Below are positions 1-14,585 of a DNA stretch of 64,000 bases, one piece after another. A program made the translations under genes and the position numbers. This stretch comes from an uncultured Candidatus Saccharibacteria bacterium. Lineage in GTDB: Bacteria; Patescibacteriota; Minisyncoccia; Phycocordibacterales; SBAW01. The notes beneath the pieces were generated by a model. That model did no database searches. It was not told the origin of the DNA and worked only from the letters and a program-made list of their open reading frames with translations. The stretch covers positions 2,273 to 66,272 of the forward strand of contig CAYGHD010000001.1 of NCBI GenBank assembly GCA_964349675.1, read 5' to 3'. Numbering within the stretch: position 1 is the stretch's first letter; each line of letters opens with the position of its first letter.

Positions 1-144
1 CAAACCAAAACGACGATAATTCTATCCAAAATCTAGCACGCTTGTGTGGCACAACCCCACTAGAGCTTTTGGTGCATATTCCGCAACACCTGCGGCGGGT
101 CATTGACAATGGTCTTTGTGGGTGATATTGTCGCCCTGTAAAGA

Positions 145-3100
145 TTGCAATTTTGTATGTCGCATCCTAGATCCACGTTGCGTGTACTCCTCTCCAGTTT
201 TTTGTTTGTGTCCGCGGCGCTGCTGCCTGGCACGGTATTTGCGCACGGGGCTAATACAAAAGTCCACCATGTTTCTCCAGCAGTGGTACAAGAGCTGCAA
301 ACGCTCACTACAGGTCTTGTTGCAGCAGATCAACCTCTCTTATCGGCAGAAGCAGCAGCTGCTCAAAATGCGCTCGGGCAACAGGTAAACATTGCAGCAA
401 GACGATCAGCGCTGATGGAGCAGGTCGCGGCAGAAGATCCGACTGTTTTTTTACAGAATGTGCTGCCCAGCTCGATTCGTGAGCAATTACCGCCCGCAGT
501 GCAACTGATAATCGAACAGCCCGTGACATTGACCGGAGTTATGGAGGTGCTTCATGTTGATGATTTTTCAAACTCTGACAATTCTCACTTCACATACCAT
601 ATGCGTGTGGGTGATGTGCGGCTAGCTTTTTATCCAGTAGGCACACCGCCCGCGATGTCATCAGGCTCTACAGCACAGGTGACCGGGTATCGCATTGGGC
701 AGAGCGTGGTGGCGGTCGGGGGTTCTGGCGGTGTAGAGGTTCTAGAGCAGGCGCTCCCTGATGCAACAGGGGTGCAACGCACCTTGGCGGTGTTGGTAAC
801 TGCCCCCGGCAAACCAATATTGCTTACTCCAGCACAAGTCAAAGCAGCAGTTTTTTCTAGAGGTTTTCAGGCTTTTTATAAAGAGCAGTCATATAACAAA
901 GTCTCCTTTACTGGAGATACGACAGAATGGATAACCGTACCCGCATATGCAACGGATATGTGCTACGGTGGCGGCAGTCTCATTACGCTTTCTCAGACAG
1001 AAATACAAAACTATTTTGTTACTAAGAATATAGATCTCTCTCAATACGGCAGAGTCGTGCTGCTTATTAATGGGCTGAGTGGCGGGTGTGCCTATGTGGG
1101 GAAGGTGGGTCAAATGGTCAACAATAAAACCTACACGCTGTCTCTTGGCTGGGTCGGCTCTCCAACTTCTGTCCCAGCGGCAGGCACTCCAGGACTGACG
1201 ATGTTCGAATACGTGCTTGCGCATGAAGTGGGCCACGAGCTTGGGGTCATGCATGCTAATGCTTGGCATTGCGCGGGCCCTTCACTCGATGTGGATTGTA
1301 CACATGCAGAGTATGGCAACGGGTACGATGTGATGGGTGGCGGATACAGCGTGTCGCACTTTAATGCGTTTTATAAAAACCTGCTTGGATGGCTTGATGA
1401 TGCGTCAAAGGTCTCTATTACTACGGCCGGCACATATACAGTAGCTCCTCTGGAGACTGCCAGCGGCCTTCGTGCCGGCATCATTACAAACCCTGGGTCG
1501 CCTACGGCACAGCCACTGTATGTGGAATATCGCCGGCCAATTGGATTTGATGCAGGGCTCGTGCCAGCGTCTATAGGGCTTTTCCTTAATCAAGTTATTG
1601 CTCCCTCAACAGCATTTCCGTTCCCGCGTCTGTTGAATGCAAACTACGCAACCACGAATATCGGCGGGCAGATGCAGCCCTTAACGCAAGGCGGGGTGTT
1701 TAGCTGGAATACGCGGGGCATTAAAATTACTGCCAATACCGTTGCTACCTCTTCAGCCACTTTTGATGTTGTGTTTACGCCTCCAATATGTACCCGCGTA
1801 GGCATTACTGCGATTAATGTCTACGCAAGCGCGCCAGTGTTGTTGGGTGGCATAGGGTACGTGCAATTTGAGGCGATAAATAATGACACTGTTGGTTGCC
1901 CATCAAGCACAATATCTATTGCTCCAAGTATCGCCCCTTCGACGGGCACAACGCTGTCTCAGTATCCGACAGGCTCAGTCACCCTTGCTCCAGGGGAATC
2001 GTCGTATTTTACGGTCTGGTTTTATACGTCACAAAGCAGCCTTGTTGGTGAAAGCGTTATCACAACAACTATCACAGACACTACTAACGCACGGACGCAC
2101 GTCTTTTCCAAAGCAGTCACTATTGTCGGTCCAAACACCCTCCCCCTGGGCTACTTTGATGCAGCAAATTGCACAACGCTCAGCGGATGGGCCTATGACC
2201 CAGATGTCGCATCGACTTCAATCAACGTGACCGTAAAAGAAGGCGACACTATCTTACTCACCACTCCCGCAAACAAACTTCGAAACGACGTCAACACCGC
2301 CCGCAACATTACCGGAAAACACGGCTTCTCCGTATCAACTCCGCTGAGCCTTAAAGACAACAAACCCCACACACTCAGCGCGTATGCAGTTGATAGTAAC
2401 GGAAAAGATGTGGCACAGCTGCAATTGAGCCCCAAGGCCATTACGTGTGGGGTAACGCCGCCAGCATCTGGGATTCTCCGCATTTCAAAAGATCCGAGCA
2501 GTCCAGCGTATCGTATTGTTTCTGGAGGAAATGAAGTGTTGTTGGGTAGCGTACACTTTAAAGCCACAAAAGAAGCTATGGCCCTGTCGCGTGTTGGAGT
2601 AACGTTGACGCAAGGCAAAATACAAGATGTAGAGCAGGTGAGTGTCTATGATGGCACAACACTGTTGGGCACTGCGCTGTTCACTACCACAAGCACGACT
2701 ACTGTTTTGTTTTCGACACTGACACATCTTCCACAAGACACAAACAAAACACTGACACTTAAAGCAACACTGGCACAGGTTGGGGGAGGCAAGCCTGGAG
2801 TGAGTGGCGACTTAGTGAAAATAGACGTAACGGCTGCTGGCACCTATGGAGTGGGCGCCTCATCAGACACGGTAGTCCCAGTGATAGGGACGACCACGTT
2901 TGCTGGTGTGCGGGTGTTTCGCAGCTATCCAACTGTTACGCTCGACCCACTTCCTGCGAACCTGACTGATACAAGACTGATGCGATTTAAAGTCACTGCT
3001 GATGCGTCGGGTGCCGTGTATCTGTACAGGGTAGGACTCTCTGTGTCTCCTGAGTTTGGGATAGTGAAAGCTGTTAATGTATTTGGTTTTACCGACTCGC

Positions 3101-3828
3101 TTTACACAAGCCCAATCCAAGGTCTCTCAGCGGGCGGCAAAATTCGCGTCAAAGATCTCTGTGCCGCTGGCTGTAGCGCGACATCAACCGTGCTCAGGTT
3201 TATTGCACAGACTGCCGCAGCTGCTCCGACGGTAATTACTATCCCCGCAGGGCAGACGCGATATTTTGAAGTACGCGGAGATCTATCTGGTACGGGCACT
3301 GGGCCGTATGGAGTTACCACAACGCTTTTGTATGACAAAGGGTACGGCGGTGTGTCCACTGCAACGGGCGTGCCCGGACATTTTATTTGGTCAGATAACG
3401 CTGTGGGCACCATAAGTTTGACCGACAAAGATTTTATGAATGGACAAGGCGTCCCAGGATTAGCGCCCTTGGGTTTGATGCAGGCTCGAGAGGTTGCTGC
3501 CTCGGGCGTCCTCCCCCTCGGCTACTTTGATGCAGCAAATTGCACAACGCTCAGCGGATGGGCCTATGACCCAGATGTCGCATCGACTTCAATCAACGTG
3601 ACCGTAAAAGAAGGCGACACTATCTTACTCACCACTCCCGCAAACAAACTTCGAAACGACGTCAACACCGCCCGCAACATTACCGGAAAACACGGCTTCT
3701 CCGTATCAACTCCGCTGAGCCTTAAAGACAACAAACCCCACACACTCAGCGCGTATGCAGTTGATAGTAACGGAAAAGATGTGGCACAGCTGCAATTGAG
3801 TCCCAAGGCCATTACGTGTGGGGCATAG
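145..3828 (+). CDS. Secreted metzincin-like zinc metalloprotease (1227 aa) with duplicated C-terminal domain
   Basis: N-terminal signal-peptide-like stretch (LLSSFLFVSAALLPGTVFA); HEVGHELGVMH fits the HExxHxxGxxH metzincin zinc motif; long Thr/Ser/Val-rich beta-like C-terminal region; the same ~104-aa domain occurs twice. Confidence 0.6.
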   Translation: MQFCMSHPRSTLRVLLSSFLFVSAALLPGTVFAHGANTKVHHVSPAVVQELQTLTTGLVAADQPLLSAEAAAAQNALGQQVNIAARRSALMEQVAAEDPTVFLQNVLPSSIREQLPPAVQLIIEQPVTLTGVMEVLHVDDFSNSDNSHFTYHMRVGDVRLAFYPVGTPPAMSSGSTAQVTGYRIGQSVVAVGGSGGVEVLEQALPDATGVQRTLAVLVTAPGKPILLTPAQVKAAVFSRGFQAFYKEQSYNKVSFTGDTTEWITVPAYATDMCYGGGSLITLSQTEIQNYFVTKNIDLSQYGRVVLLINGLSGGCAYVGKVGQMVNNKTYTLSLGWVGSPTSVPAAGTPGLTMFEYVLAHEVGHELGVMHANAWHCAGPSLDVDCTHAEYGNGYDVMGGGYSVSHFNAFYKNLLGWLDDASKVSITTAGTYTVAPLETASGLRAGIITNPGSPTAQPLYVEYRRPIGFDAGLVPASIGLFLNQVIAPSTAFPFPRLLNANYATTNIGGQMQPLTQGGVFSWNTRGIKITANTVATSSATFDVVFTPPICTRVGITAINVYASAPVLLGGIGYVQFEAINNDTVGCPSSTISIAPSIAPSTGTTLSQYPTGSVTLAPGESSYFTVWFYTSQSSLVGESVITTTITDTTNARTHVFSKAVTIVGPNTLPLGYFDAANCTTLSGWAYDPDVASTSINVTVKEGDTILLTTPANKLRNDVNTARNITGKHGFSVSTPLSLKDNKPHTLSAYAVDSNGKDVAQLQLSPKAITCGVTPPASGILRISKDPSSPAYRIVSGGNEVLLGSVHFKATKEAMALSRVGVTLTQGKIQDVEQVSVYDGTTLLGTALFTTTSTTTVLFSTLTHLPQDTNKTLTLKATLAQVGGGKPGVSGDLVKIDVTAAGTYGVGASSDTVVPVIGTTTFAGVRVFRSYPTVTLDPLPANLTDTRLMRFKVTADASGAVYLYRVGLSVSPEFGIVKAVNVFGFTDSLYTSPIQGLSAGGKIRVKDLCAAGCSATSTVLRFIAQTAAAAPTVITIPAGQTRYFEVRGDLSGTGTGPYGVTTTLLYDKGYGGVSTATGVPGHFIWSDNAVGTISLTDKDFMNGQGVPGLAPLGLMQAREVAASGVLPLGYFDAANCTTLSGWAYDPDVASTSINVTVKEGDTILLTTPANKLRNDVNTARNITGKHGFSVSTPLSLKDNKPHTLSAYAVDSNGKDVAQLQLSPKAITCGA
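2141..2452 (+). repeat. Internal direct repeat copy 1 (~312 bp) inside the metalloprotease gene
   Basis: Matches 3512..3823 at an offset of 1371 bp; only two nucleotide differences seen, both synonymous (ctg/ctc Leu, agc/agt Ser). Confidence 0.85.
3512..3823 (+). repeat. Internal direct repeat copy 2 (~312 bp), at the 3' end of the metalloprotease gene
   Basis: Near-identical to 2141..2452; the encoded peptide LPLGYFDAANCTTLSGWAYDPD...AITCG is identical in both copies. Confidence 0.85.
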
Positions 3829-3864
3829 AATGCTTTACGGGCCATGTACGTTCGTGCATGATGA

Positions 3865-5214
3865 ATGGACATGAGCGTATATCAAGAGTATTTCAAAGGC
3901 AAGCGCATCACCCTTATGGGGTTAGGGCTCCTTGGACGGGGTGTTGGGGACGCTCGCTTTTTAGCTCAGTGTGGCGCTGAGCTTTTAGTGACTGACCTTA
4001 AAACTAAAGAGCAATTGGCAGAGTCGCTCGAGCAACTCAAAGAGTTTCCACATATTACCTATCGCTTGGGCGAGCATGTGCTCGAAGATTTTCAAAATCG
4101 CGACTTGGTGCTCAAGGCGGCGGGTGTGCCGCTCAACTCGCCGCATATCGCAGAGGCAAAAAAGAATGGTATCCCCGTGCGTATGAGTGCAGATTTGTTT
4201 GTAGAGTTGTCCGGCTTGCCTACTGTGGCCATTACCGGCACACGCGGCAAGTCCACGGTGACGCATATGATTGCGCATATATTAAAAACCGCAGGCAAAG
4301 AAGTGTTGCTTGGAGGTAACGTACGTGGTGTCTCAACACTTGCCTTGTTGCCGCAGGTAACCGCCAACTCTATTGCAGTTCTGGAGCTGGACTCGTGGCA
4401 ACTGCAGGGGTTTGGCGAAGCACGCATTGCGCCGCACGTTGGTGTGTTTACCACATTTTATCCTGACCATATGAACTACTACGGCGGTAGTATGGAGCAG
4501 TACTTTGCCGACAAAGCAAATATTTTTTTGCATCAAACGGCGAGTGACACGTTGGTGCTGGGCGAGCAGGTGGCGCCTTTTGTTAAAGAATTTGGATACA
4601 CCAGTACAATACAAGCACATACCGAAGTGGTGGGTGTAAAAAATCTACCCAACGCTGTTACTTTAGGGATCCCAGGCGAACATAATCGCTACAACGCGGC
4701 GCTCGCTGCCGCAGCTGCAGAGGCGCTTGGTGTGGACGAGAAAATAATTAAAGCAGCGCTCGAGTCTTTTGAAGGGGTAGAGGGGCGGCTCCAATTCTTG
4801 AAAGAAGTTCGAGGAGTAAAAATGTACAACGATAATAATGCTACTACTCCTGACGCAACCATTGCGGCGCTTCGTGCATTTGGAGACAGTAAAAACATCG
4901 TTCTTATTATGGGCGGCTCAGATAAGGGTCTCGACATGCAACCGTTGGTCGACGAAATTCACACACGTTGTAAAAAAGTCTTTCTGCTCGACGGTGCAGG
5001 GACGCAGCGGATTAAAGACCAGATTGAAAGTGACTTGACCCTATTGTCCGGGCAAGTATATCAAGGTGTCCCTGAGGTGGTGCAAGCGGCATTTGGGGCC
5101 TGTGTGCCGGGTGATATTCTTCTTTTTTCTCCAGCGTTCGCCTCGTTTGGTATGTTTAAAAACGAATACGATCGCAACGACCAATTTGTGGCGGCGGTGG
5201 CGAGTTTAGCATAG
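3865..5214 (+). CDS. murD: UDP-N-acetylmuramoylalanine--D-glutamate ligase
   Basis: N-terminal Rossmann-like GLGLLGRGVGDARFL; Mur ligase P-loop GTRGKSTVTHMIAHIL; typical length of 449 aa; adjacent to murC. Confidence 0.85.
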   Translation: MDMSVYQEYFKGKRITLMGLGLLGRGVGDARFLAQCGAELLVTDLKTKEQLAESLEQLKEFPHITYRLGEHVLEDFQNRDLVLKAAGVPLNSPHIAEAKKNGIPVRMSADLFVELSGLPTVAITGTRGKSTVTHMIAHILKTAGKEVLLGGNVRGVSTLALLPQVTANSIAVLELDSWQLQGFGEARIAPHVGVFTTFYPDHMNYYGGSMEQYFADKANIFLHQTASDTLVLGEQVAPFVKEFGYTSTIQAHTEVVGVKNLPNAVTLGIPGEHNRYNAALAAAAAEALGVDEKIIKAALESFEGVEGRLQFLKEVRGVKMYNDNNATTPDATIAALRAFGDSKNIVLIMGGSDKGLDMQPLVDEIHTRCKKVFLLDGAGTQRIKDQIESDLTLLSGQVYQGVPEVVQAAFGACVPGDILLFSPAFASFGMFKNEYDRNDQFVAAVASLA

Positions 5215-5218
5215 ACTG

Positions 5219-6445
5219 ATGCGTATGAAGGGTCAAAAAATACACATGATAGGCATCGGCGGCATTGGGATGTCGGCTTTGGCCCAGCTCTATGCGCACG
5301 AGGGAGCAGTGGTCACCGGCTCGGACCGCAGTGAGCAGCCTACAACCCAGATGCTCGAGAAAAAAGGCATCACCGTTTTTATTGGGAATCACGCTGATAA
5401 TGTGCCTACTGACGCCGTGCTGCTTGTCTATAGCGCGGCGGTACCCAGCGAAAACGCTGAGCGTGTCCGCGGGCATGAGTTGCATATCCCTGAAATGAAC
5501 TACCCCGAAGCCTTGGGACAAGCGACAAAAGGTAAACGATTGATCGCCGTGGTTGGTACGCACGGCAAAACAACAACAACCGCGATGATAGGCAAGATGC
5601 TCGAAGATGCAGGGAAAGACCCAACGGTTGTGGTGGGGAGTGTGGTGCCAGAGTGGCATAGTAACTTCCGCAGCGGTTCCTCTGATATTTTTGTTGTTGA
5701 AGCGTGTGAGTACCGCAAACATTTTTTAGCATTCCACCCAGAGGTGCTTGTGGTGACAAATATCGAATGGGATCATACCGACTTTTACAAAACTGAAACA
5801 GAGTTTATCGCAGCCTTCGACGAAGTAAAATCACAAGCAGGGCGAGTGATAGACGCGTCTGTGTACCAAGCTACTTCAGTGCCAGAGCTGCTGTTGCCAG
5901 GCAGCTTCAATCAAGATAACGCCCGCGCAGCAAAAGCAGGAGTCATGGCGCTGTGTCCGGACATAGATGAAGCAGTGCTTGATGAGTCACTCAAAAGTTT
6001 TAAAGGAACGTGGCGGCGGTTTGAGTACAAAGGCAAAACGACTGGAGGTGCAGATGTGTACGACGACTACGCACACCACCCAACGTCAGTAGCAAAAACA
6101 ATAGAAGCTGCGCGCGAGAAATTCTCTGGAAAAAACATAGTGGTATTTTTCCATCCACACCTGTACAGCCGCACTCGCGACCTGTTTGACGGATTTGTAG
6201 AGGCGCTTACAACGGCAGACCAAGTGTACGTGTTGCCGGTATTTGCTGCTCGCGAGCCGCACGACGCATCAGTCTCCAACGAGGCATTAGCGCAGGCGAT
6301 ACAAAAAAACGGTGGCAAAGCAGAGGCTGTAGATACCATGGAAGAAGTGACAGAGAAAATCAAATCTTTTAACGCCGGGGCGCTGGTGTTTACTATGGGC
6401 GCGGGCGATGTGTACAAAGCTGGAGAGCGGGCACTTGCAAAATAA
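5219..6445 (+). CDS. murC: UDP-N-acetylmuramate--L-alanine ligase
   Basis: IHMIGIGGIGMSALAQL N-terminus typical of MurC; Mur ligase P-loop GTHGKTTTTAMIGKML; 408 aa. Confidence 0.85.
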   Translation: MRMKGQKIHMIGIGGIGMSALAQLYAHEGAVVTGSDRSEQPTTQMLEKKGITVFIGNHADNVPTDAVLLVYSAAVPSENAERVRGHELHIPEMNYPEALGQATKGKRLIAVVGTHGKTTTTAMIGKMLEDAGKDPTVVVGSVVPEWHSNFRSGSSDIFVVEACEYRKHFLAFHPEVLVVTNIEWDHTDFYKTETEFIAAFDEVKSQAGRVIDASVYQATSVPELLLPGSFNQDNARAAKAGVMALCPDIDEAVLDESLKSFKGTWRRFEYKGKTTGGADVYDDYAHHPTSVAKTIEAAREKFSGKNIVVFFHPHLYSRTRDLFDGFVEALTTADQVYVLPVFAAREPHDASVSNEALAQAIQKNGGKAEAVDTMEEVTEKIKSFNAGALVFTMGAGDVYKAGERALAK

Positions 6446-6446
6446 T

Positions 6447-7157
6447 ATGACAGACAAATCCCCCAGACAGACTCAAAGCAAACTCTCCGTCGTGGCAACT
6501 CCCATTGGCAACTTGGAAGACGTGACTTTGCGCGCATTGCGCATACTTAAAGAGGCAGACGTCATAGCGTGCGAGGATACCCGCACCTCAAAAAAATTAC
6601 TTTCGCATTATGACATTCATACGCCTTTGACGTCTTTCCATACCCACAGTGGTGAAAGAGGCTTTGCAAAAATCCTCGCTCTTTTGGAAGATGGTAAACA
6701 TGTGGCGCTTGTGTGCGATGCGGGCACGCCTGGAGTATCTGACCCGGGGCTTGAATTGGTGTCGGTGGTGCGCGAGCGGTTGCCTGAGGTAATTGTCGAG
6801 GCAATACCAGGGGCCTCGGCGCTGACAGCGGCGCTTTCTATTGCGGGTTTACGCGCAGCGTCCTTTACTTTTTACGGATTTTTGCCGCTTAAAAAGGGCC
6901 GCGAGACTTTATTTAAAGAAATTGCGGCAAATGAGCGGGCGAGTATTTTTTATGAATCTCCGCATCGTATACTTAAAACACTGGAGTCGCTCAAAAAAGC
7001 ATTGTCAGACAATAGGCGGGTTGGTTTGTTTCGCGAGCTGACCAAAATGCATGAAGAGGCTATCGTCGGCCGACCCGACGAGCTCCTTGCGGTGCTAGGT
7101 GCTGACACAAACAAACAGCGTGGCGAATTTGTGGTGATTGTTGAGACGTTGTCCTAA
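6447..7157 (+). CDS. rsmI: 16S rRNA (cytidine1402-2'-O)-methyltransferase, tetrapyrrole-methylase fold
   Basis: LSVVATPIGNLEDVTLRALRILKEADVIACEDTRTSKKLL is the RsmI signature; the start is placed at ATG 6447, directly after the murC stop (the ORF-track start at 6408 lies inside murC). Confidence 0.8.
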   Translation: MTDKSPRQTQSKLSVVATPIGNLEDVTLRALRILKEADVIACEDTRTSKKLLSHYDIHTPLTSFHTHSGERGFAKILALLEDGKHVALVCDAGTPGVSDPGLELVSVVRERLPEVIVEAIPGASALTAALSIAGLRAASFTFYGFLPLKKGRETLFKEIAANERASIFYESPHRILKTLESLKKALSDNRRVGLFRELTKMHEEAIVGRPDELLAVLGADTNKQRGEFVVIVETLS

Positions 7158-7166
7158 AGCGCTTCT

Positions 7167-7415
7167 TTGCTATACTTAACTCATATGTCAAAAGAGATGA
7201 GTGTTATTGTGCTCGGCGTTCTTGTCATGCTAATTCCGTATCTTGGAATCCCCGGTTCATGGCGAACACTATTGTTAGTGGTTGTGGGTGTCGCGGTAAC
7301 CATACTCGGATTTTTGCTCCGTGGTGAAACAATCTCTCAAGGTACAAGAAAGACGGAGCATCTCCCTTTTGTTGATAGTGCAGGCAATCCTCTCGGAAAG
7401 AGCGATGAACTCTAA
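7167..7415 (+). CDS. Small hydrophobic protein (82 aa, 2 predicted TM helices)
   Basis: ORF with two hydrophobic stretches; overlaps the start of the next gene by 11 bp; no recognisable family. Confidence 0.3.
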   Translation: MLYLTHMSKEMSVIVLGVLVMLIPYLGIPGSWRTLLLVVVGVAVTILGFLLRGETISQGTRKTEHLPFVDSAGNPLGKSDEL

Positions 7416-8688
7416 ACAGCACAACACCCCCGCGTCCACACTTCTGCATATCGGGTTGGTGACTGTTGCGCTGTGCGTCTCTTTGGGGGTGGGGGCGTAT
7501 GTGTTGCTTCGAGGCGACACCGTGTCCCATGCGCAACCGGTTGTGGTTGAAACAATGGCTGCAGTGGCTCCAAAACCCTCTGTAGCGTATGTACAAACTC
7601 CTGCAGCAGTAAAAGCTATCTACATGTCCCAATGCGTGGTTGGAACGCCGACGTTTAGAGATGAGCTTGTTGCATTTATTGATGACAGTGAGCTTAACGC
7701 GGTGGTTATTGATATTCAAGATTACACAGGAAAGATCGCATTTCCAACGGATAATCCGCTTTTGCATGATGCAGTGTCACAAAAATGCGGAGCCGACGAT
7801 ATGAAGGACTTTATTGCCACGCTGCATGAAAAAGGGATTTACGTGATTGGGCGTATCACTGTGTTTCAAAACCCTTACTATGCGAGCGTGCATCCAGAGC
7901 AAGCAGTACAGAAAAAAAGTGGCGGCGTATGGAAAGACTTTAACGGTCTTGCGTTTGTTGATGTTGGCGCAAAAGCATATTGGGACTATGTAGTCGAGCT
8001 GGGTCGAGTGTCGCACGAACTTGGATTTGATGAGTTGAACTTTGATTATGTGCGCTACCCTTCAGACGGGCCAATGTCTGAGGCAGTGTATACGCATAGT
8101 CTAGGAAAGAGTAAAGCACAGATGCTCGAAGATTTTTTTGCGTACCTGACAGGGCGCTTGCGGCTGCAAGAAACTCCAGATGCCCCAGTGCCTACTCTCT
8201 CTGCTGACGTGTTTGGGATGGTTGCAACCAACACAGATGATGTTGGTATTGGCCAAGTACTTGAAAGAACGTTGCCATATTTTGACTATGTCTCACCGAT
8301 GATATATCCATCGCACTACCACACGGGGTTCCATGGATATGATGACGTTAATGCACATGCCTATGACATTGTGAAGTATGCGATGCAGACAGCGGTAGCG
8401 CGTACGGTTGCCACCACAACCCGGGTGGCAACAAACAATGGGGTCAAGGTGACATCCCCTGTCCCTGCAGCGCAAGAAGTTTTGGATAGGGCGCCGCTCT
8501 ATGTAAAGGAATCGTACGTTGCGTCAAAGATCCGCCCATGGCTCCAAAGTTTTGATTACCCGGTCGCCTATACTCCGGATATGGTGCGGGCACAGATCAA
8601 AGCAACACAAGAAGCCGGTGTCGAATCCTATTTGTTTTGGGATGCTGCCAACAAATATACGTCGTTGCGTAAGGTGCTGTTGCCATAA
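7405..8688 (+). CDS. Membrane-anchored putative glycoside hydrolase (DUF4015/COG1306-like TIM barrel)
   Basis: N-terminal TM anchor (LLHIGLVTVALCVSLGVGAYVLL); motifs NAVVIDIQDYTGKIAFP and ELNFDYVRYPSDG recalled as characteristic of the DUF4015 putative glycosyl-hydrolase family; start chosen at internal ATG 7405. Confidence 0.5.
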   Translation: MNSKQHNTPASTLLHIGLVTVALCVSLGVGAYVLLRGDTVSHAQPVVVETMAAVAPKPSVAYVQTPAAVKAIYMSQCVVGTPTFRDELVAFIDDSELNAVVIDIQDYTGKIAFPTDNPLLHDAVSQKCGADDMKDFIATLHEKGIYVIGRITVFQNPYYASVHPEQAVQKKSGGVWKDFNGLAFVDVGAKAYWDYVVELGRVSHELGFDELNFDYVRYPSDGPMSEAVYTHSLGKSKAQMLEDFFAYLTGRLRLQETPDAPVPTLSADVFGMVATNTDDVGIGQVLERTLPYFDYVSPMIYPSHYHTGFHGYDDVNAHAYDIVKYAMQTAVARTVATTTRVATNNGVKVTSPVPAAQEVLDRAPLYVKESYVASKIRPWLQSFDYPVAYTPDMVRAQIKATQEAGVESYLFWDAANKYTSLRKVLLP

Positions 8689-8728
8689 TGCCAAGTCTTG
8701 AGAGGTTGGTGAGTGGTATACTTTTAGT

Positions 8729-10558
8729 ATGCAGGAAGATCCAAACAAAATAACATTCTTTGCCCAAACAAATTCTCGCGGCAAAGAGACGCCGTTTGGG
8801 ATTAAGCGTAAAGACCGCGCCCGCCATATGTATGTGATTGGCAAGACCGGCATGGGTAAATCAACCCTGCTTGAAAACATGGCCATTCAGGATATCCGAA
8901 ATGGCGAAGGGCTCGCGTTTATCGATCCACACGGCTCAACAGCGGACAGAATTATGGAATACGTGCCCGAGCATCGCATCAAAGATGTGGTTTACTTTGC
9001 GCCCTTTGATATGGACTATCCGGTGGCCTTTAATGTGATGGAAGACGTTGGATATGACAAACGCCATTTGGTGGTATCTGGTCTTTTGTCTGCGTTTCGC
9101 AAAATCTGGGTTGACGCTTGGAGTGCTCGCATGGAATATATTTTGTCCAACACACTGCTTGCCCTGCTTGAATATGAAGGTGCAACACTGCTTGATGTAA
9201 ATCGCATGCTGGTGAACAAGGTGTTTCGCAAAAAGGTAGTAGAAAATGTTACAGACCCAATTGTGAAGAGTTTTTGGGTCGATGAATTTGCGAATTATAC
9301 TGACCGCTATACACAAGATGCTACACCTGCCATACAGAACAAGGTAGGGCAGTTTACGAGCAATCCACTGATTCGTAACATTGTTGGGCAGCCAAAATCC
9401 TCTTTTGATATACGGCAAATTATGGATGAGAAAAAAATACTCATCATGAACTTGTCAAAAGGCCGCGTGGGCGAGGTAAACGCAACCCTGTTGGGCTCAA
9501 TGCTTGTTACTAAAATATACTTGGCGGCAATGTCTCGCGCAGATGTGCCAGCACAGACGCTTGCGACGCTGCCGAATTTCTACTTCTATGTTGACGAATT
9601 TCAAAACTTTGCCAATGAGTCATTCTCTGACATTTTATCGGAGGCTCGCAAATATAAACTTAATTTAATTATCGCGCACCAGTACATCGAGCAGATGGAA
9701 GAGGAGGTGCGTGACGCTGTGTTTGGCAACGTGGGTACTACTGTTGCATTTCGGGTAGGACCGTTTGATGCTGAAGTGCTTGAAACTATATTCCAACCGC
9801 AATTTACGCAAACAGACCTAGTTAATTTAGGATTCGCACAGATCTACCTGACTCTGATGATAGACGGTGTCGGGTCGCCCCCTTTTTCTGCGACTACCAT
9901 CGCCCCGTTTGATCTGCCGCCAGAGCGGTTTACTGATGTCGTACTCCAAAACTCACGGATGCAATTTGCAAAACATCGAGAAGCGGTTGAAGCCGCACTC
10001 GCGGTATGGCAAGAAGTAGATAATGCAAAACCGAAAGTGCAAAGCGAGGCCGCTCGACCAAAACCCATTGCCTCGAGTGCTCCGCAGGCGCCTGTAGCGG
10101 CGGTGGTGCCCAGACCCTACGTACCTCCGGCACGCCCAGTGCCTACACAGGTTCCTGTAGAAAAACCAACACCCTATGTGCCGCCAACTCCAACTCCAAC
10201 TCCAACTCCAGCTCCAGCTCCAGCTCCCATACAAAAACCCGTTGATGTGCATCCTAAACCCTATCAGCCGGTGGTACAAAAGCCGCAGACTCCAAAGCCA
10301 ATGCCAGAGCGGCCTCCACTTGGGGGTGCAAAAAGCCTCAGAGAGGCGCTTGCACAAGTTACTCATAGTAAAGGGGTGACGCCAGCTGTTCCTGCTCCGC
10401 GGCCCGTATCCAATGGGGTACATGCGCCCGACTTAAAAGAGACCTTACACAAGGTTGCAGAACATGCAGAAAAAAAGTCTCCACCAAAAGCAGCATTGCC
10501 AGAAGCACTACTACGTGAAATGCTCGCTGTTGACGAGTTACCTGATGAAAAAGCGTAA
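8729..10558 (+). CDS. VirD4/TraG-type (type IV secretion coupling-protein-like) P-loop ATPase with Pro/Thr-rich C-terminal tail
   Basis: Walker A HMYVIGKTGMGKSTLLENM followed by FIDPHGS (compare the DPKG motif of TraG/VirD4); DEFQNF Walker-B-like; ~150-aa low-complexity C-terminal tail (PTPTPTPTPAPAPAP, KP/PV-rich). Confidence 0.5.
   Translation: MQEDPNKITFFAQTNSRGKETPFGIKRKDRARHMYVIGKTGMGKSTLLENMAIQDIRNGEGLAFIDPHGSTADRIMEYVPEHRIKDVVYFAPFDMDYPVAFNVMEDVGYDKRHLVVSGLLSAFRKIWVDAWSARMEYILSNTLLALLEYEGATLLDVNRMLVNKVFRKKVVENVTDPIVKSFWVDEFANYTDRYTQDATPAIQNKVGQFTSNPLIRNIVGQPKSSFDIRQIMDEKKILIMNLSKGRVGEVNATLLGSMLVTKIYLAAMSRADVPAQTLATLPNFYFYVDEFQNFANESFSDILSEARKYKLNLIIAHQYIEQMEEEVRDAVFGNVGTTVAFRVGPFDAEVLETIFQPQFTQTDLVNLGFAQIYLTLMIDGVGSPPFSATTIAPFDLPPERFTDVVLQNSRMQFAKHREAVEAALAVWQEVDNAKPKVQSEAARPKPIASSAPQAPVAAVVPRPYVPPARPVPTQVPVEKPTPYVPPTPTPTPTPAPAPAPIQKPVDVHPKPYQPVVQKPQTPKPMPERPPLGGAKSLREALAQVTHSKGVTPAVPAPRPVSNGVHAPDLKETLHKVAEHAEKKSPPKAALPEALLREMLAVDELPDEKA
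10190..10232 (+). repeat. Hexanucleotide microsatellite (ccaact)x3 then (ccagct)x3 inside the coding sequence
   Basis: Read directly: ccaactccaactccaactccagctccagctccagctcc, encoding PTPTPTPAPAPAP. Confidence 0.8.
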
Positions 10559-11390
10559 CTGCGCTCGCACAATATCTTTTTTACTATGCGTCGTCAGTCT
10601 GGGTGTGCCGTGTGCGGCGACTGCCGCGGTTACTATAACCGAAGCGATGTACAATCCTGCGGGGAGTGACACCGGGCGTGAGTGGATAGAATTACATAAT
10701 AGCGGCAGCGAGGCGGTAGAGGTTTCGGCTGGGCAAAAAGGGTGGCGCATAAACGATGGCGCAAACCATGTGTTTGGAAGTAACGTAGTGATACCTCCCG
10801 GTGGGTTTGTTATAGTCGCCAGCAACCCCGTGGCGTTTGCGGCGCAGTACGGCAGCGGGTTATTGGTTGTTAAATCAGCGTTGAGTCTTAATAATGCGGG
10901 CGGCACACTTTCTTTGCTTGATGCAGAGGGAAAAATTGTAGACACGGTTTCGTATACAAAAAGCATTGGTGGACTTGAAGATGGTATGTCACTGCATAGG
11001 GTGGGTAGCGGTTTTGCACCGGGCACCCCAAACCCAGGCGTTGCACCAGCTCCAGGTGTCCCTAAAAGTGCGTCGCCTGCACAAAAAACGACGGCATCAA
11101 CTGCCGCTGCGCCAAAAATACAACAAAAGAAAACTGTAGTGGAGCAATCTGCTCGAGCTGTCGACAAGTCTGAATTGCCGGCTGCCGCTGCTGCGCAACA
11201 AAGCACCCACACCGGAGAGTTAGACTCTCCGGTTGGTCTGCCAAAGCAAGGAGGGTTTTTATGGCATTATGTTTTGGCGCTGACTGCGCTCGTGGTCCTT
11301 GGGGTGGCGAGCGTCTGGTATATCCGTGCTGAAAAACAGGCGAAGCAGTATGAAACCCCTGCTTCGGTGGATGAGTTTGATATAGAATAA
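10545..11390 (+). CDS. Lamin-tail-domain (LTD) protein with signal peptide and C-terminal TM anchor
   Basis: ITEAMYNPAGSDTGREWIELHNSGSEAVEVS is the canonical LTD motif; N-terminal hydrophobic signal (ISFLLCVVSLGVPCAATAA); Ala/Pro/Gly linker; C-terminal TM (WHYVLALTALVVLGVASVWYI); start at ATG 10545 overlaps the upstream stop by 14 bp. Confidence 0.6.
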   Translation: MKKRNCARTISFLLCVVSLGVPCAATAAVTITEAMYNPAGSDTGREWIELHNSGSEAVEVSAGQKGWRINDGANHVFGSNVVIPPGGFVIVASNPVAFAAQYGSGLLVVKSALSLNNAGGTLSLLDAEGKIVDTVSYTKSIGGLEDGMSLHRVGSGFAPGTPNPGVAPAPGVPKSASPAQKTTASTAAAPKIQQKKTVVEQSARAVDKSELPAAAAAQQSTHTGELDSPVGLPKQGGFLWHYVLALTALVVLGVASVWYIRAEKQAKQYETPASVDEFDIE

Positions 11391-11427
11391 ACGGGCTTTT
11401 ACTCTGCCCATTTGCTACACTCACAAC

Positions 11428-12552
11428 ATGAAAAAAGTACTCATATTTTCTCTCGCATATTACCCACGCGTGGGTGGGGCAGAGGTGGCAGTTAAAGAAA
11501 TTACTGACCGCATTACTGACATCGAGTTCCACATGGTGACTATGCGATTTTCTGCAACGGATGCATCACAGGAGCGGGTAGGAAACGTGCTGGTTCATAG
11601 GATTGGAAGAGGGAGTAGCAAAATACATAAATTTTTATTCCAATTCTACGCGGCATGGGTGGCGCACAAGCTACACAAAAAAGAATCTTTTGACGCAACG
11701 TGGGCAGTCATGGCGCACGGCGCAGGGGTGCCGGCGGCGTTATTTAAAACTTGGCACAAAAATGTGCCCTATATTTTGAACCTGCAAGAAGGTGACCCAA
11801 TTGCACATATAGAAAAGACGATGCTGCCGCTGTGGCCATGGTTTGTGCGGGCGTTTACAAAAGCCGACATGGTGCAGCCGCTTTCAACCTACCTAGCAGT
11901 GTGGGCTCGTACGCGCGGATACAAAGGGCCGATAGAGATAATCCCTAACGGTGTCTCTATTTCGCAGTTTGAAGGTGTGCCGGAGGCGCACGAGCGGGTG
12001 GTGCTCATCACTACGTCACGGTTGGTGCACAAAAATGCAGTGGACGATGTGATTAAAGCGCTGCCGCTTTTGCCAACGCTGGTGCAATTTCGCATTTTAG
12101 GTACAGGCAAAGAAGAAGCAAATCTTAAAGCTTTGGCAAAAAAACTTGGGGTAGAGGGCCGCGTCGAGTTTGTGGGATATGTTGACCATGCACAGTTGCC
12201 GAATGAATTGCACAAGGCAGATATTTTTATACGGCCCTCGAGGAGCGAGGGGTTTGGTGCGTCGTTTGTAGAGGCGATGGCGGCGGGGCTGCCGGTGGTT
12301 GCAACACAAGAGGGGGGATTGGCGGACTTTTTATTTGATGTAAAAAAGAATCCCGACAAACCATCTACTGGCTTTGCGGTAGACAAAAACTCACCTGAGC
12401 AAATCGCTGAAGCAGTAAAAACCATTTTGGCTCAACCACAGCAAGTGGTAGAGGTGGTCAAAAACGCCCAGGCAATGGTGAAAGAAAAATACGACTGGGA
12501 CACTGTTACGCGCCACATGCGCGATCGAGTGTTTGGGAAGGTGTTTGTGTAG
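11428..12552 (+). CDS. Glycosyltransferase family 4 (GT-B)
   Basis: RPSRSEGFGASFVEAMAAGLPVVATQEGGLADFL is the GT4 E-x7-E region; GT-B length of 374 aa. Confidence 0.75.
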   Translation: MKKVLIFSLAYYPRVGGAEVAVKEITDRITDIEFHMVTMRFSATDASQERVGNVLVHRIGRGSSKIHKFLFQFYAAWVAHKLHKKESFDATWAVMAHGAGVPAALFKTWHKNVPYILNLQEGDPIAHIEKTMLPLWPWFVRAFTKADMVQPLSTYLAVWARTRGYKGPIEIIPNGVSISQFEGVPEAHERVVLITTSRLVHKNAVDDVIKALPLLPTLVQFRILGTGKEEANLKALAKKLGVEGRVEFVGYVDHAQLPNELHKADIFIRPSRSEGFGASFVEAMAAGLPVVATQEGGLADFLFDVKKNPDKPSTGFAVDKNSPEQIAEAVKTILAQPQQVVEVVKNAQAMVKEKYDWDTVTRHMRDRVFGKVFV

Positions 12553-12624
12553 ATGGGACTGTTGTCCCCTGCAAAAAGCCCACTCGTGTCGGTATAAATT
12601 TTTTTCTACTATATACTTTGTATT

Positions 12625-13572
12625 GTGATTAATATTCTATACGTGGTCATTCTGTTGGGTATCCTGGTTTCTGTATACAGGATGCATGAGCTTGAGAATA
12701 ATATTTTGTATTGGGTTATGTTGCTGGGGGTTTTGCTCCTATTGCTGATCTCCAAGCGGTTAAATCCTAAAACTCCAAGGACCAACTCCGTTGCTGGTAA
12801 AGTAATAGCGACAAATACAAAAGAGCGTTTTCCTACGTGGTATCGGTTGCGTCGTCTCATTCGCGGTGTCGTGTTAATTGGTTGTGGAATTGCACTGTTC
12901 GCCCTGTGCTGGTTCCTGGTGACCCACTATTCTCAATGGCTACTGTCAGGAAAAGAATATATTGCCCTGTCTACAAACGCCCATGCGATGGTCTCGCTGG
13001 TGTTAGCCTTTTTCTTGGGTCTTGTTTGGGGTAGTTTTTTGCTTAGCCCTTTAGACCGTATTTTCTCGAGCGCTGCATACCGCCTGAAGAAAAATCACTC
13101 CAAGGGAGGGAATGGCAAAACAAGAGGTAATTCAAAATCTTTTACAAAATCGTACCGTACGTTTACGATTATTTTTTCTTTTCTCACCGCTTCACTACTT
13201 TTTCTTGTGGCGGATAATTATTATTATGTCGACCAACAAGCCCTTCATTACAATTCATTCTTTGGGATTAGTGAGAAAAGTATACCTCTCGGTAAGCTGG
13301 AAAAGATTGAAGTAGCTGCCAGGAAAGGATCATCACGTCGGTTCCTTTCGGGTTCTTATTGGGAGTACGTATTAGTATTTAGCACGGGCGAAAAGTTTAA
13401 CCTAAGAGAAGCGGGAGCGACGGATTTGAAAGAATTAGACACACTTCTTATGGGGAAAAATATCCCAGTCGAAGTTACAAGATTAGATGACAATGCAAGG
13501 GTGTGGGTAACTAGTAACGCCTGGCCGGATGTTCAAGAGTTGTTTAAGCAAGTACTTAGCAGAAGTCGATAA
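12625..13572 (+). CDS. Hypothetical membrane protein (multi-TM N-terminal half, soluble C-terminal half)
   Basis: Several hydrophobic helices; no recognisable motif; lies in an AT-richer segment. Confidence 0.35.
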   Translation: MINILYVVILLGILVSVYRMHELENNILYWVMLLGVLLLLLISKRLNPKTPRTNSVAGKVIATNTKERFPTWYRLRRLIRGVVLIGCGIALFALCWFLVTHYSQWLLSGKEYIALSTNAHAMVSLVLAFFLGLVWGSFLLSPLDRIFSSAAYRLKKNHSKGGNGKTRGNSKSFTKSYRTFTIIFSFLTASLLFLVADNYYYVDQQALHYNSFFGISEKSIPLGKLEKIEVAARKGSSRRFLSGSYWEYVLVFSTGEKFNLREAGATDLKELDTLLMGKNIPVEVTRLDDNARVWVTSNAWPDVQELFKQVLSRSR

Positions 13573-13594
13573 ATTAAATAACGTAAATGTTAAA

Positions 13595-13625
13595 AACTAA
13601 CGCAGTCTGACTGCGTTAGTTTTCT
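13595..13625 (+). terminator. Rho-independent terminator
   Basis: Perfect 11-bp stem aactaacgcag / ctgcgttagtt with loop tctga, followed by a T-run, 23 bp after the stop at 13572. Confidence 0.55.
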
Positions 13626-13838
13626 AGGCAAGCGAGAGAACGCTCGTAAGTGGTATATACTACACGGTAGCTATTAGTAAGTTAATTTTAAACTTAAATG
13701 AACAAAATAGTTTGGATCGCTATCGTGCTTGTTGTCGGAGGTATAGGTTTTTATGTATGGAATTCAAATATGCTTCCAGGGTTTGTTTCGTCAGGGGCCG
13801 ACAGACAACCACCCGCACTACCCGAATAAGCATAAAAT

Positions 13839-14510
13839 ATGAACAAATACCTAGTACTTTTGGTTCCTGTTTTGTTCCTTATGTTCGCTCAGTCAGTCGA
13901 TGCCCGAAGCACTTTTTCTGTAAAGGAGGGGTGGAATTTGGTGAGCACTGATGTTTTAGAAGACGCCATGAAAGACAAAAACGGGTTTGATGAGCTTCTT
14001 GCACAAGGTGGCGCCGTGTTCGGTTTAAGTTCTATTGATAAAAAATACTATGGTGGCAGTGGTAGTTGGGACAAGATAAATAAAAATCTACAAGACCTAT
14101 ATCGTTCGCTCCCTCGTGGCGATGAGTGTGGTGGTGACGACTGCGTTCCTGCTTTTGGTTGGTGGTTTTATAGTCCACGGAGTTTCTCTCTATCTGTTGA
14201 TTTCGACATATCTAGAGATAATCTCGATAATTATACTAAAGCGTATCGCCTCAATAGTGGTTGGAATCTTGTGGGTATAACCAATACGTTTCTCGGAAAA
14301 TCACTCACTGAAGTGCGAGGCTCTTGTGAGTTTGTTTCTGTCTACCATTACGAAAACGGGAGCTTCCGCAAACAAATGGACTCTGATTTAAGAGAGCGAA
14401 TGACTGAAGACTCCTTAGGGCATGCGCTTGCTGTTAAAGTACGCAATGATTGTGTATTCAGTTTCGACAAAGTGGTCACGCCCAAACAAATTCCCGCTAT
14501 TCCAGAGTAA
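13839..14510 (+). CDS. Secreted hypothetical protein (223 aa)
   Basis: Signal-peptide-like N-terminus MNKYLVLLVPVLFLMFAQSVDA; internal repeated GWNLV motif; no known family recognised. Confidence 0.4.
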   Translation: MNKYLVLLVPVLFLMFAQSVDARSTFSVKEGWNLVSTDVLEDAMKDKNGFDELLAQGGAVFGLSSIDKKYYGGSGSWDKINKNLQDLYRSLPRGDECGGDDCVPAFGWWFYSPRSFSLSVDFDISRDNLDNYTKAYRLNSGWNLVGITNTFLGKSLTEVRGSCEFVSVYHYENGSFRKQMDSDLRERMTEDSLGHALAVKVRNDCVFSFDKVVTPKQIPAIPE

Positions 14511-14585
14511 TCCCGTAGAAAAGTGGTGTAAGGTGCGCGGTGGTAACTTCTCGCCCTTGAGGGCAGTTTGAGATAGAGTTACCGT

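Follow-up and report, generated by a model that had tools for sequence, protein, structure and literature searches.

How does one bacterial gene come to carry two nearly identical copies of a domain on either side of an unrelated one, and are both copies real? The question is raised by a gene near the start of a 64,000-nucleotide (nt) stretch of contig CAYGHD010000001.1, from an uncultured Candidatus Saccharibacteria bacterium (the window is this whole stretch, and positions are counted from its first letter). The encoded protein of 1223 amino acids (aa) has, in order, a predicted signal peptide, a conserved N-terminal region, a catalytic domain, a beta-rich region, a repeat domain (R1), an unrelated module (B) and a second copy of the repeat domain (R2). 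The reading favoured here, with slightly better than even confidence, is that of a modular secreted metzincin of a Parcubacteria-like member of the Patescibacteria (candidate phyla radiation, CPR), with C-terminal modules that vary by recombination between the R copies.

Repeat structure and the short allele

The gene was one uninterrupted open reading frame (ORF) on the + strand, from 145 (TTG) or 157 (ATG) to the stop codon at 3826-3828. R1 and R2 formed a direct repeat of 314 nt, ~99.4% identical in nt, with a start-to-start distance of 1371 nt. The copies mismatched only at 2148 (G/C) and 2430 (C/T), both third codon positions and both synonymous, and the encoded domain (LPLGYF...AITCG, 104 aa) was identical in the two. 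The stop codon or frameshift between the copies that the first-pass annotation allowed for was absent, and 1371 is a multiple of 3 (3 x 457). Chance was ruled out as the source of the repeat (0 matches expected for a 22-mer from it; 100 shuffles), and no third copy of R was found within the 64-kb window. The same annotation had placed the copies at 2141..2452 and 3512..3823, right within 2 nt of the 314 nt found here, and had correctly counted two synonymous differences only and identical domains of 104 aa. Its repeat stands as a feature; the unit that varies is R plus B (1371 bp) and not R alone, and the separate origin of B was missed.

A sister strain carried a short allele. Its protein (P0001, 766 aa; JGI sample 3300037810, contig Ga0376277_0000096, here L001, 547 kb) had a single R at the end and no B, and differed from the window protein by three substitutions apart from the missing R and B. 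Nucleotide identity of L001 was 98.8% to window positions 1-2452 and 96.6% to 3510-11005. The single R of L001 was flanked on one side by the same junction with the protease part (A) as in the window, and on the other by the same junction with murD. Compared with L001, the window had one extra in-frame 1371-nt unit (2453-3823; B plus R, equivalent to R plus B) bounded by direct repeats. Repeat number varied between these close relatives by a whole in-frame unit, with one copy in the sister strain; a comparison of orthologues had been proposed in the first-pass annotation, and variation was what it found.

Under the favoured reading, R-B-R would be a super-repeat of a single R-B unit, closed by a final R. 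The two 314-bp copies would undergo homologous recombination that deletes or restores one in-frame 1371-bp unit, and removal of the unit would give the short allele of the sister strain. Gene conversion, or recent duplication, would hold the R copies at ~99.4% identity.

Divergence between the strains and direction of change

The R of L001 had the R1 alleles at 2148 and 2430, and two private synonymous changes, at 2160 and 2424, set it apart from R1 and R2 alike. The proportion of synonymous differences (pS) was 0.026 for R1 against R2, 0.026 for R1 against the R of L001, and 0.053 for R2 against the R of L001. Between strains, pS was 0.050 in the protease part and 0.163 in murD. With three R sequences and four variable sites, neither a tree nor the direction of change was resolvable from R itself. 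The long allele is more likely the older one, which would make the short allele the product of a deletion on the sister strain's side, because no match to B exceeded ~42% identity, even among the proteins encoded on the sister strain's 547-kb contig.

The alternative that survives best, although unlikely, is a recent gain. The ancestor would then have had the short form, the window lineage would have acquired B-R (or R-B) after the strains split, and R2 would be the young copy. The unit would have come in either from a circular R-B intermediate that integrated by a single crossover, or through allelic replacement with another strain as the source. The pS between R1 and R2, no larger than that between strains, points to coalescence of the copies near the strain split, and the R of L001 is purely of the R1 type; B is also unique within the protease family and the R-B-R arrangement unique among the B-bearing loci, and the fact that murD has diverged far more than the protease part hints at recent recombination. 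A very recent gain would need, however, an unsampled close relative as donor, carrying both this B, of which no form above 42% identity is known, and an R that is 99.4% identical. It would also merely move the origin of R-B-R to another strain of the same species.

Strain divergence was mosaic along the locus. The murD gene (window 3865-5214, L001 12338-13687) had a pS of 0.163 and a proportion of nonsynonymous differences (pN) of 0.032, with a dense block of mismatches at ~4411-4800, and the adjacent protease part had a pS of 0.050 and a pN of 0.002. This mosaic points to a tract of recombination, or to strains that have recently exchanged the protease gene, and the weaker divergence seen in the protease part than in murD suggests active recombination around the locus.

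Assembly evidence for two copies

Recent duplication or gene conversion on the one hand, and an assembly problem on the other, were the alternatives posed in the first-pass annotation, and they were the right ones. Each of the four junctions of the repeat had its own allele of a single-nucleotide polymorphism (SNP) within 10-22 nt: G at R position 10 at the junction A-R, C at position 10 at B-R, C at position 292 at R-to-B, and T at position 292 at R-to-murD. A distinct allele at each junction means that all four junction sequences exist in the data, and duplication by the assembly algorithm would have left two identical copies. Both junctions of B were in frame and fell exactly on domain boundaries.

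Three other assemblies, carriers of the exact MurD of the window, were compared. An ENA MEGAHIT k141 contig (L040; 70,952 bp, 100% identical to 3660-11214) started at 3660, which is 3801-141, and two Logan k31 contigs (L041 and L042) started at 3771, which is 3801-30. These starts were the first k-mers that hold the R2-specific base at 3801, and breaks at this SNP imply that the R core has two right-hand continuations in those reads. The breaks fit the presence of both R1-to-B and R2-to-murD in the same reads. An exact cluster look-up of nine predicted B-only partial proteins (k=31, k=141) found none of them; the control, the 55-aa partial protein of L040, was also absent.

An assembly expansion or chimera is improbable. 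It supposes a true single-copy locus, A-R-murD. The R-B and B-R junctions would come from a different locus or strain, or from a (B-R)n element in tandem or circular form, and the assembler would have threaded them through the shared 282-nt core of R. The sister strain has just this single-copy form, the MEGAHIT assembly of the window's strain stops inside R2 and leaves the repeat untraversed, and the 282-nt core between the SNPs is longer than any k-mer used, with phasing dependent on paired reads. Conversely, all four junctions were present, each with its own nearby allele, the junctions of B lay in frame on domain boundaries, and the inserted unit was 3 x 457 nt. A second R or a second B was looked for and was absent from the 64-kb window and from 22 kb of the sister contig, B had no alternative home (no relative above 42% identity in 5.8 billion protein clusters), and the composition of B matched that of the gene.

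Collapse in the sister strain, with R-B-R in both strains, the 766-aa form an artefact and no polymorphism at all, is very improbable: repeats longer than k can be mis-resolved, and the single-copy contig is known once (the P0001 cluster has 2 members), but the usual outcome with a de Bruijn assembler is a break at a repeat of this sort, as in L040-L042, and not the skipping of 1 kb inside a 547-kb contig, the two private synonymous changes in the R of L001 mean that it is not a copy of the window sequence, and B above ~42% identity from JGI samples was not found among the matches listed, a weak point given that short or partial proteins may be missing there.

Several points weigh against the favoured reading. 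The same contig breaks could come from a mixture of strains that includes an L001-like allele (C, then murD), and it is the source assembly that places A-R1-B and B-R2-murD on one molecule. A crossover in the current sequences would give an R1/R2 hybrid, and the R of L001 has the R1 alleles at both distinguishing sites; this expectation is escaped if the crossover fell in the last 22 nt, or if the R2 SNPs came later. Positions 2160 and 2424, at which both window copies differ from L001, are not polarisable, so that gene conversion is a proposed mechanism, and all counts of differences are tiny (2-4). As to the protein, the Met-turn proposed below is a candidate assigned from sequence alone, nothing points to substrates of the protease or to ligands of R and B, and the gene neighbourhoods of homologues were not conserved.

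Origin of module B

Module B was ~40% identical, over 94-99% of its length, to the last ~350 aa of Patescibacteria proteins of ~1170 aa (P0029-like proteins). The profile match spanned B-profile positions 3-347, and the homology was full-length. The P0029-like proteins have an N-terminal PG_binding_1 domain (PF01471), 4-5 repeats of ~150 aa that are related to the first half of B, and the C-terminal module. The B-like module ended 2-3 aa before the stop codon in 36 of the 39 loci tabulated, which include the window's own; the exceptions were the window, L002 and L032. In the window, the protease stands before B and 112 aa (R2) follow it, so that B is here not the C-terminus of a PG_binding_1 protein.

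Among the protease homologues fetched (P0001-P0029), B was found only in the window's protein, and R was found in none of the other B-bearing loci of the table. Scans of genome and metagenome contigs for a near-identical B gave at most 41% identity among the matches listed. By its homology, B reads as a module captured from a different surface-protein family and not as protease sequence, and R and B together would act as non-catalytic spacer or binding modules.

A foreign origin of B by composition was rejected: its G+C content (0.515) and its G+C content at third codon positions (GC3; 0.457) matched those of the rest of the gene (0.509 and 0.471).

The P0029-type family (L003-L039, e.g. L003 7523-11104) was observed in many metagenome-assembled genomes of Paceibacterota, Saccharibacteria and Kaiserbacteria. 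Its members are of ~1150-1240 aa and without annotated function, with four or five beta-sandwich repeats of ~150 aa and a C-terminal module of ~350 aa that ends in FIWSPN...DWTNG.G..GLPS.

The repeat domain R and its family

R was confidently modelled as an immunoglobulin (Ig)/FN3-like beta-sandwich of the seven- to nine-stranded type, similar to bacterial Ig-like modules of solved structure, and the folds nearest to the model included Bap domains. An alignment of five R-type domains (the window's own and those at the C-terminal ends of P0003, P0005 and P0006) had in common P2, G4, D7, C11, G16, W17, D20, H61, G62, D73, H77, Y82, D85 and C103. A bond between C11 and C103 probably staples the two ends of R. 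The model supports a non-catalytic R that folds as an independent beta-sandwich, in agreement with the first-pass annotation; a binding or anchoring role is plausible, the fold being generic and with no ligand indicated.

An exhaustive profile search with R returned 10,752 representative proteins at E <= 1e-3 and 5,031 at E <= 1e-10 (representatives at 50% clustering), with up to 15 copies per protein. Pfam gave no match over aa 662-765 or 1119-1222 at E <= 0.01, and the R copies of ten R-rich proteins were also undetected with a 2025 copy of Pfam-A, so that R falls outside the curated Big_x, fn3 and PKD families; the partner domains in those ten proteins included Por_Secre_tail, CBM60, Big_7 and RHS. 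A PDB sequence search with R gave nothing significant. A database search with R alone (110 aa) was empty despite the identical sequence in P0001, probably through a limit of the word index.

The arrangement of R copies was surveyed in the top 149 of the 10,752 family members (P0064-P0212). Most copies followed one another in tandem, 5 aa apart at the median, and a copy stood at the extreme C-terminus in 52 of the 149. At least one pair of copies was >=99% identical in 12 of the 149, and several of these 12 were super-repeats of R plus 100-300 aa, e.g. P0174 and P0081 (period of 323 aa, six copies). R is an extracellular Ig-like repeat of a common, generic sort, and its family shows near-identical copies time and again.

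Across the R family, a conserved G-W-x-x-D motif and terminal cysteines were observed, and super-repeats with 100% identical copies were frequent.

Protease domain and classification

The first-pass annotation called the protein metzincin-like, and the alignment with 19 homologues bears this out. H356, E357, H360, G363 and H366 of the extended motif HExxHxxGxxH were invariant in it, as were E385, Y386, G387, N388, D391, M393 and G394 and two pairs of cysteines. Met393, within EYGN..D.MG and 27 residues past the third His, is a plausible candidate for the Met-turn on the strength of this conservation. Pfam gave Reprolysin_3 (24.6 bits; cut-off 22.4) and Reprolysin_4 (23.8 bits; cut-off 22), both above their cut-offs and both marginal and local, around the zinc site; Reprolysin_2 and Reprolysin_5 scored under theirs. 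TIGR03296 (NCBIfam M6-domain) aligned with aa 237-470 at E 3.9e-9, yet at 36.8 bits against a cut-off of 110.8, and Peptidase_M6 (PF05547) was under its cut-off (E 0.31; 10.7 bits against 22). Gametolysin M11 (PF05548) had no match in the window protein at E <= 1, and was carried only by distant homologues (P0030-P0038).

Metzincins are defined by HEXXHXXGXX(H/D) plus a Met-turn, and the third zinc ligand is Asp in the thuringilysins (M6) (PMC12237041). The third ligand in the window protein was His366, as in all 19 homologues, and not the Asp of M6. A PDB sequence search with the whole protein gave chance-level matches only, and a profile of the family alignment matched InhA (4yu5; E 8e-4) and snake-venom adamalysins over short segments only. 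By sequence, the protein appears to belong to a distinct clade of metzincin-type peptidases from Patescibacteria, nearest to the M6 and reprolysin-like families and outside both M6 and M11 by their models.

The database search returned 44 protease homologues, and the named ones were all Patescibacteria (Parcubacteria, Vogelbacteria and 'Patescibacteria group'). Their C-terminal modules differed (TIG, PKD, dockerin or R). Distant homologues had PF10633 or CARDB-type domains at the position of the post-catalytic region, and this region was weakly similar to RbmA and to beta-domains of sialidases when the family profile was compared with PDB. A literature search on secreted metalloproteases of Patescibacteria returned nothing relevant.

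The N-terminus (MSHPRSTLRVLLSSFLFVSAALLPGTVFA) reads as a typical Sec signal peptide, in line with the secretion proposed in the first-pass annotation, and equivalent N-termini were also present in homologues. A secreted zinc endopeptidase of this kind, if active, would cleave extracellular or host-surface proteins. The conserved region that follows the signal peptide is a possible pro-domain or beta-domain, and had no Pfam match.

Gene features and neighbourhood

The features of the gene are given in Table 1. Both public gene calls start at the ATG, and give 1223 aa for the window protein and 766 aa for its sister-strain counterpart. Promoter-type sites were no more numerous in the region than in shuffles, so that the site listed is only suggestive. 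Rfam had no match anywhere in the window.

Table 1. Features of the metallopeptidase gene (window positions, residues numbered from the ATG at 157 unless noted).
Feature	Position	Strand	Details
Promoter-like TTGACA-17-TATTGT with TG upstream	103..131	+	10/12 positions match; 26 nt 5' of the ATG
Coding sequence of modular secreted metallopeptidase (secretion and activity predicted)	157..3828	+	1223 aa plus stop; exact product on record (NCBI assembly, 76,797-bp contig)
Predicted Sec signal peptide MSHPRSTLRVLLSSFLFVSAALLPGTVFA	157..243	+	Basic N-region, hydrophobic core, V-F-A end; read by eye
N-terminal region with EVLHVDDF motif	244..864	+	Conserved across 19 homologues
Predicted catalytic metallopeptidase domain (aa 237-470), with zinc motif and Met-turn candidate	865..1566	+	TIGR03296, Reprolysin_3/_4, family profile
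Zinc-binding motif HEVGHELGVMH (HExxHxxGxxH)	1222..1254	+	aa 356-366 from ATG 157 (aa 360 from TTG)
EYGNGYDVMG	1309..1338	+	Candidate Met-turn Met393 at nt 1333-1335
Post-catalytic beta-rich region, Cys545/Cys581 pair	1567..2138	+	C545, N575 and C581 invariant (19 homologues)
Repeat copy R1, modelled Ig/FN3-like domain	2139..2452	+	aa 662-765
Module B, 352 aa, predicted two beta-sandwiches	2453..3509	+	Homologous to the C-terminal module of P0029-like proteins
Repeat copy R2, then Ala and stop	3510..3823	+	aa 1119-1222; protein identical to R1

Two minus-strand ORFs, 2193-2618 (141 aa) and 3564-3872 (102 aa), were rejected as genes; they are mirror images of the R copies, and the long identical stretch that they share comes solely from their overlap with these copies.

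The neighbours in the window were murD and murC, with alr in L001. Conserved operon context as a clue to function was rejected, the neighbours being unrelated in P0003, P0005 and P0012. Further downstream, gene content differed between the strains in the region of lamin-tail-domain (LTD), epimerase and glycosyltransferase genes (window 11005-11428 and 12533-14540, L001 19454-20656 and 21761-21780). Where L001 had about 1.2 kb, the window had ~0.4 kb instead, and L001 lacked ~2 kb that the window carried (ORFs 12625-13572 and 13839-14510); the flanking glycosyltransferase genes were only ~90% identical. At 8729-10558 (+), a protein of 609 aa with TrwB_AAD_bind and TraG-D_C (a type IV coupling-protein-like ATPase) was encoded between DUF4015 and LTD genes, an arrangement kept in the sister strain. 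In the genome of P0003, the protease gene was directly followed by a gene for a protein of 1015 aa with a faint B_lectin match and weak CARDB matches (L045 4229-7276), possibly another large secreted protein encoded there.

Significance and comparison with known systems

For host attachment and feeding in Patescibacteria, the prime candidates are surface and secreted proteins, of which almost none is characterised. The locus offers a metzincin clade that is specific to Patescibacteria and has a clear active site, a case of apparent module capture from another surface-protein family, and a structural polymorphism with two alleles. It overturns no expectations: modular proteases, identical Ig-like repeats and units lost by recombination between direct repeats are familiar in bacterial surface proteins.

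A further idea, speculative and given little credence, is that the 1371-bp R plus B serves as a reversible domain cassette, with RecA-mediated pop-out and re-integration switching the population between the short and the long protease. The occurrence in other family members of 100% identical R copies 100-300 aa apart is compatible with it. If so, the long form would display the distal module of a peptidoglycan (PG)-binding surface family and would vary the binding target of the protease in an episymbiotic CPR bacterium, at the level of strains or within a population, and the R family would be a general recombination handle for shuffling surface modules.

With InhA (M6, thuringilysins; PDB 4yu5), the window protein shares the plan of a large secreted modular metzincin-type peptidase with beta-domains after the catalytic domain. 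The family profile found its best PDB sequence match in InhA, along the segment FYKEQSYG...W(I/L)TVP, TIGR03296 aligned with the whole catalytic domain, and the JGI label of the sister protein is 'M6 family metalloprotease-like'. The window protein differs from InhA and M6 in scoring under the cut-offs of both M6 models, in a third ligand that is His and not Asp, and in its C-terminal modules. The reprolysin-like families (PF13582, PF13583) and the adamalysins (M12B) have HExxHxxGxxH in common with it, and its zinc helix aligns with that of the snake-venom adamalysins, but the matches span only ~50-100 residues around the zinc site, and the window protein is without a disintegrin or Cys-rich domain and has conserved N-terminal and post-catalytic regions of its own.

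The alpha C and Rib proteins of group B streptococci, and Bap, are surface proteins with identical repeats within the gene and with copy numbers that vary by recombination. The window gene resembles them in Ig-like repeats that are nearly identical in nt and in alleles of close strains that differ by whole in-frame units. Unlike theirs, its R copies are not adjacent but bracket an unrelated module of 352 aa, which makes the unit a composite of R and B, and the host is a CPR bacterium. With the P0029-like proteins, B matches the last ~350 aa end to end, the FIWS...DW.NG.G..GLP motif included; there the module forms the extreme C-terminus in 36 of the 39 tabulated loci, whereas in the window gene it lies inside the protein, joined to a protease and with R behind it.

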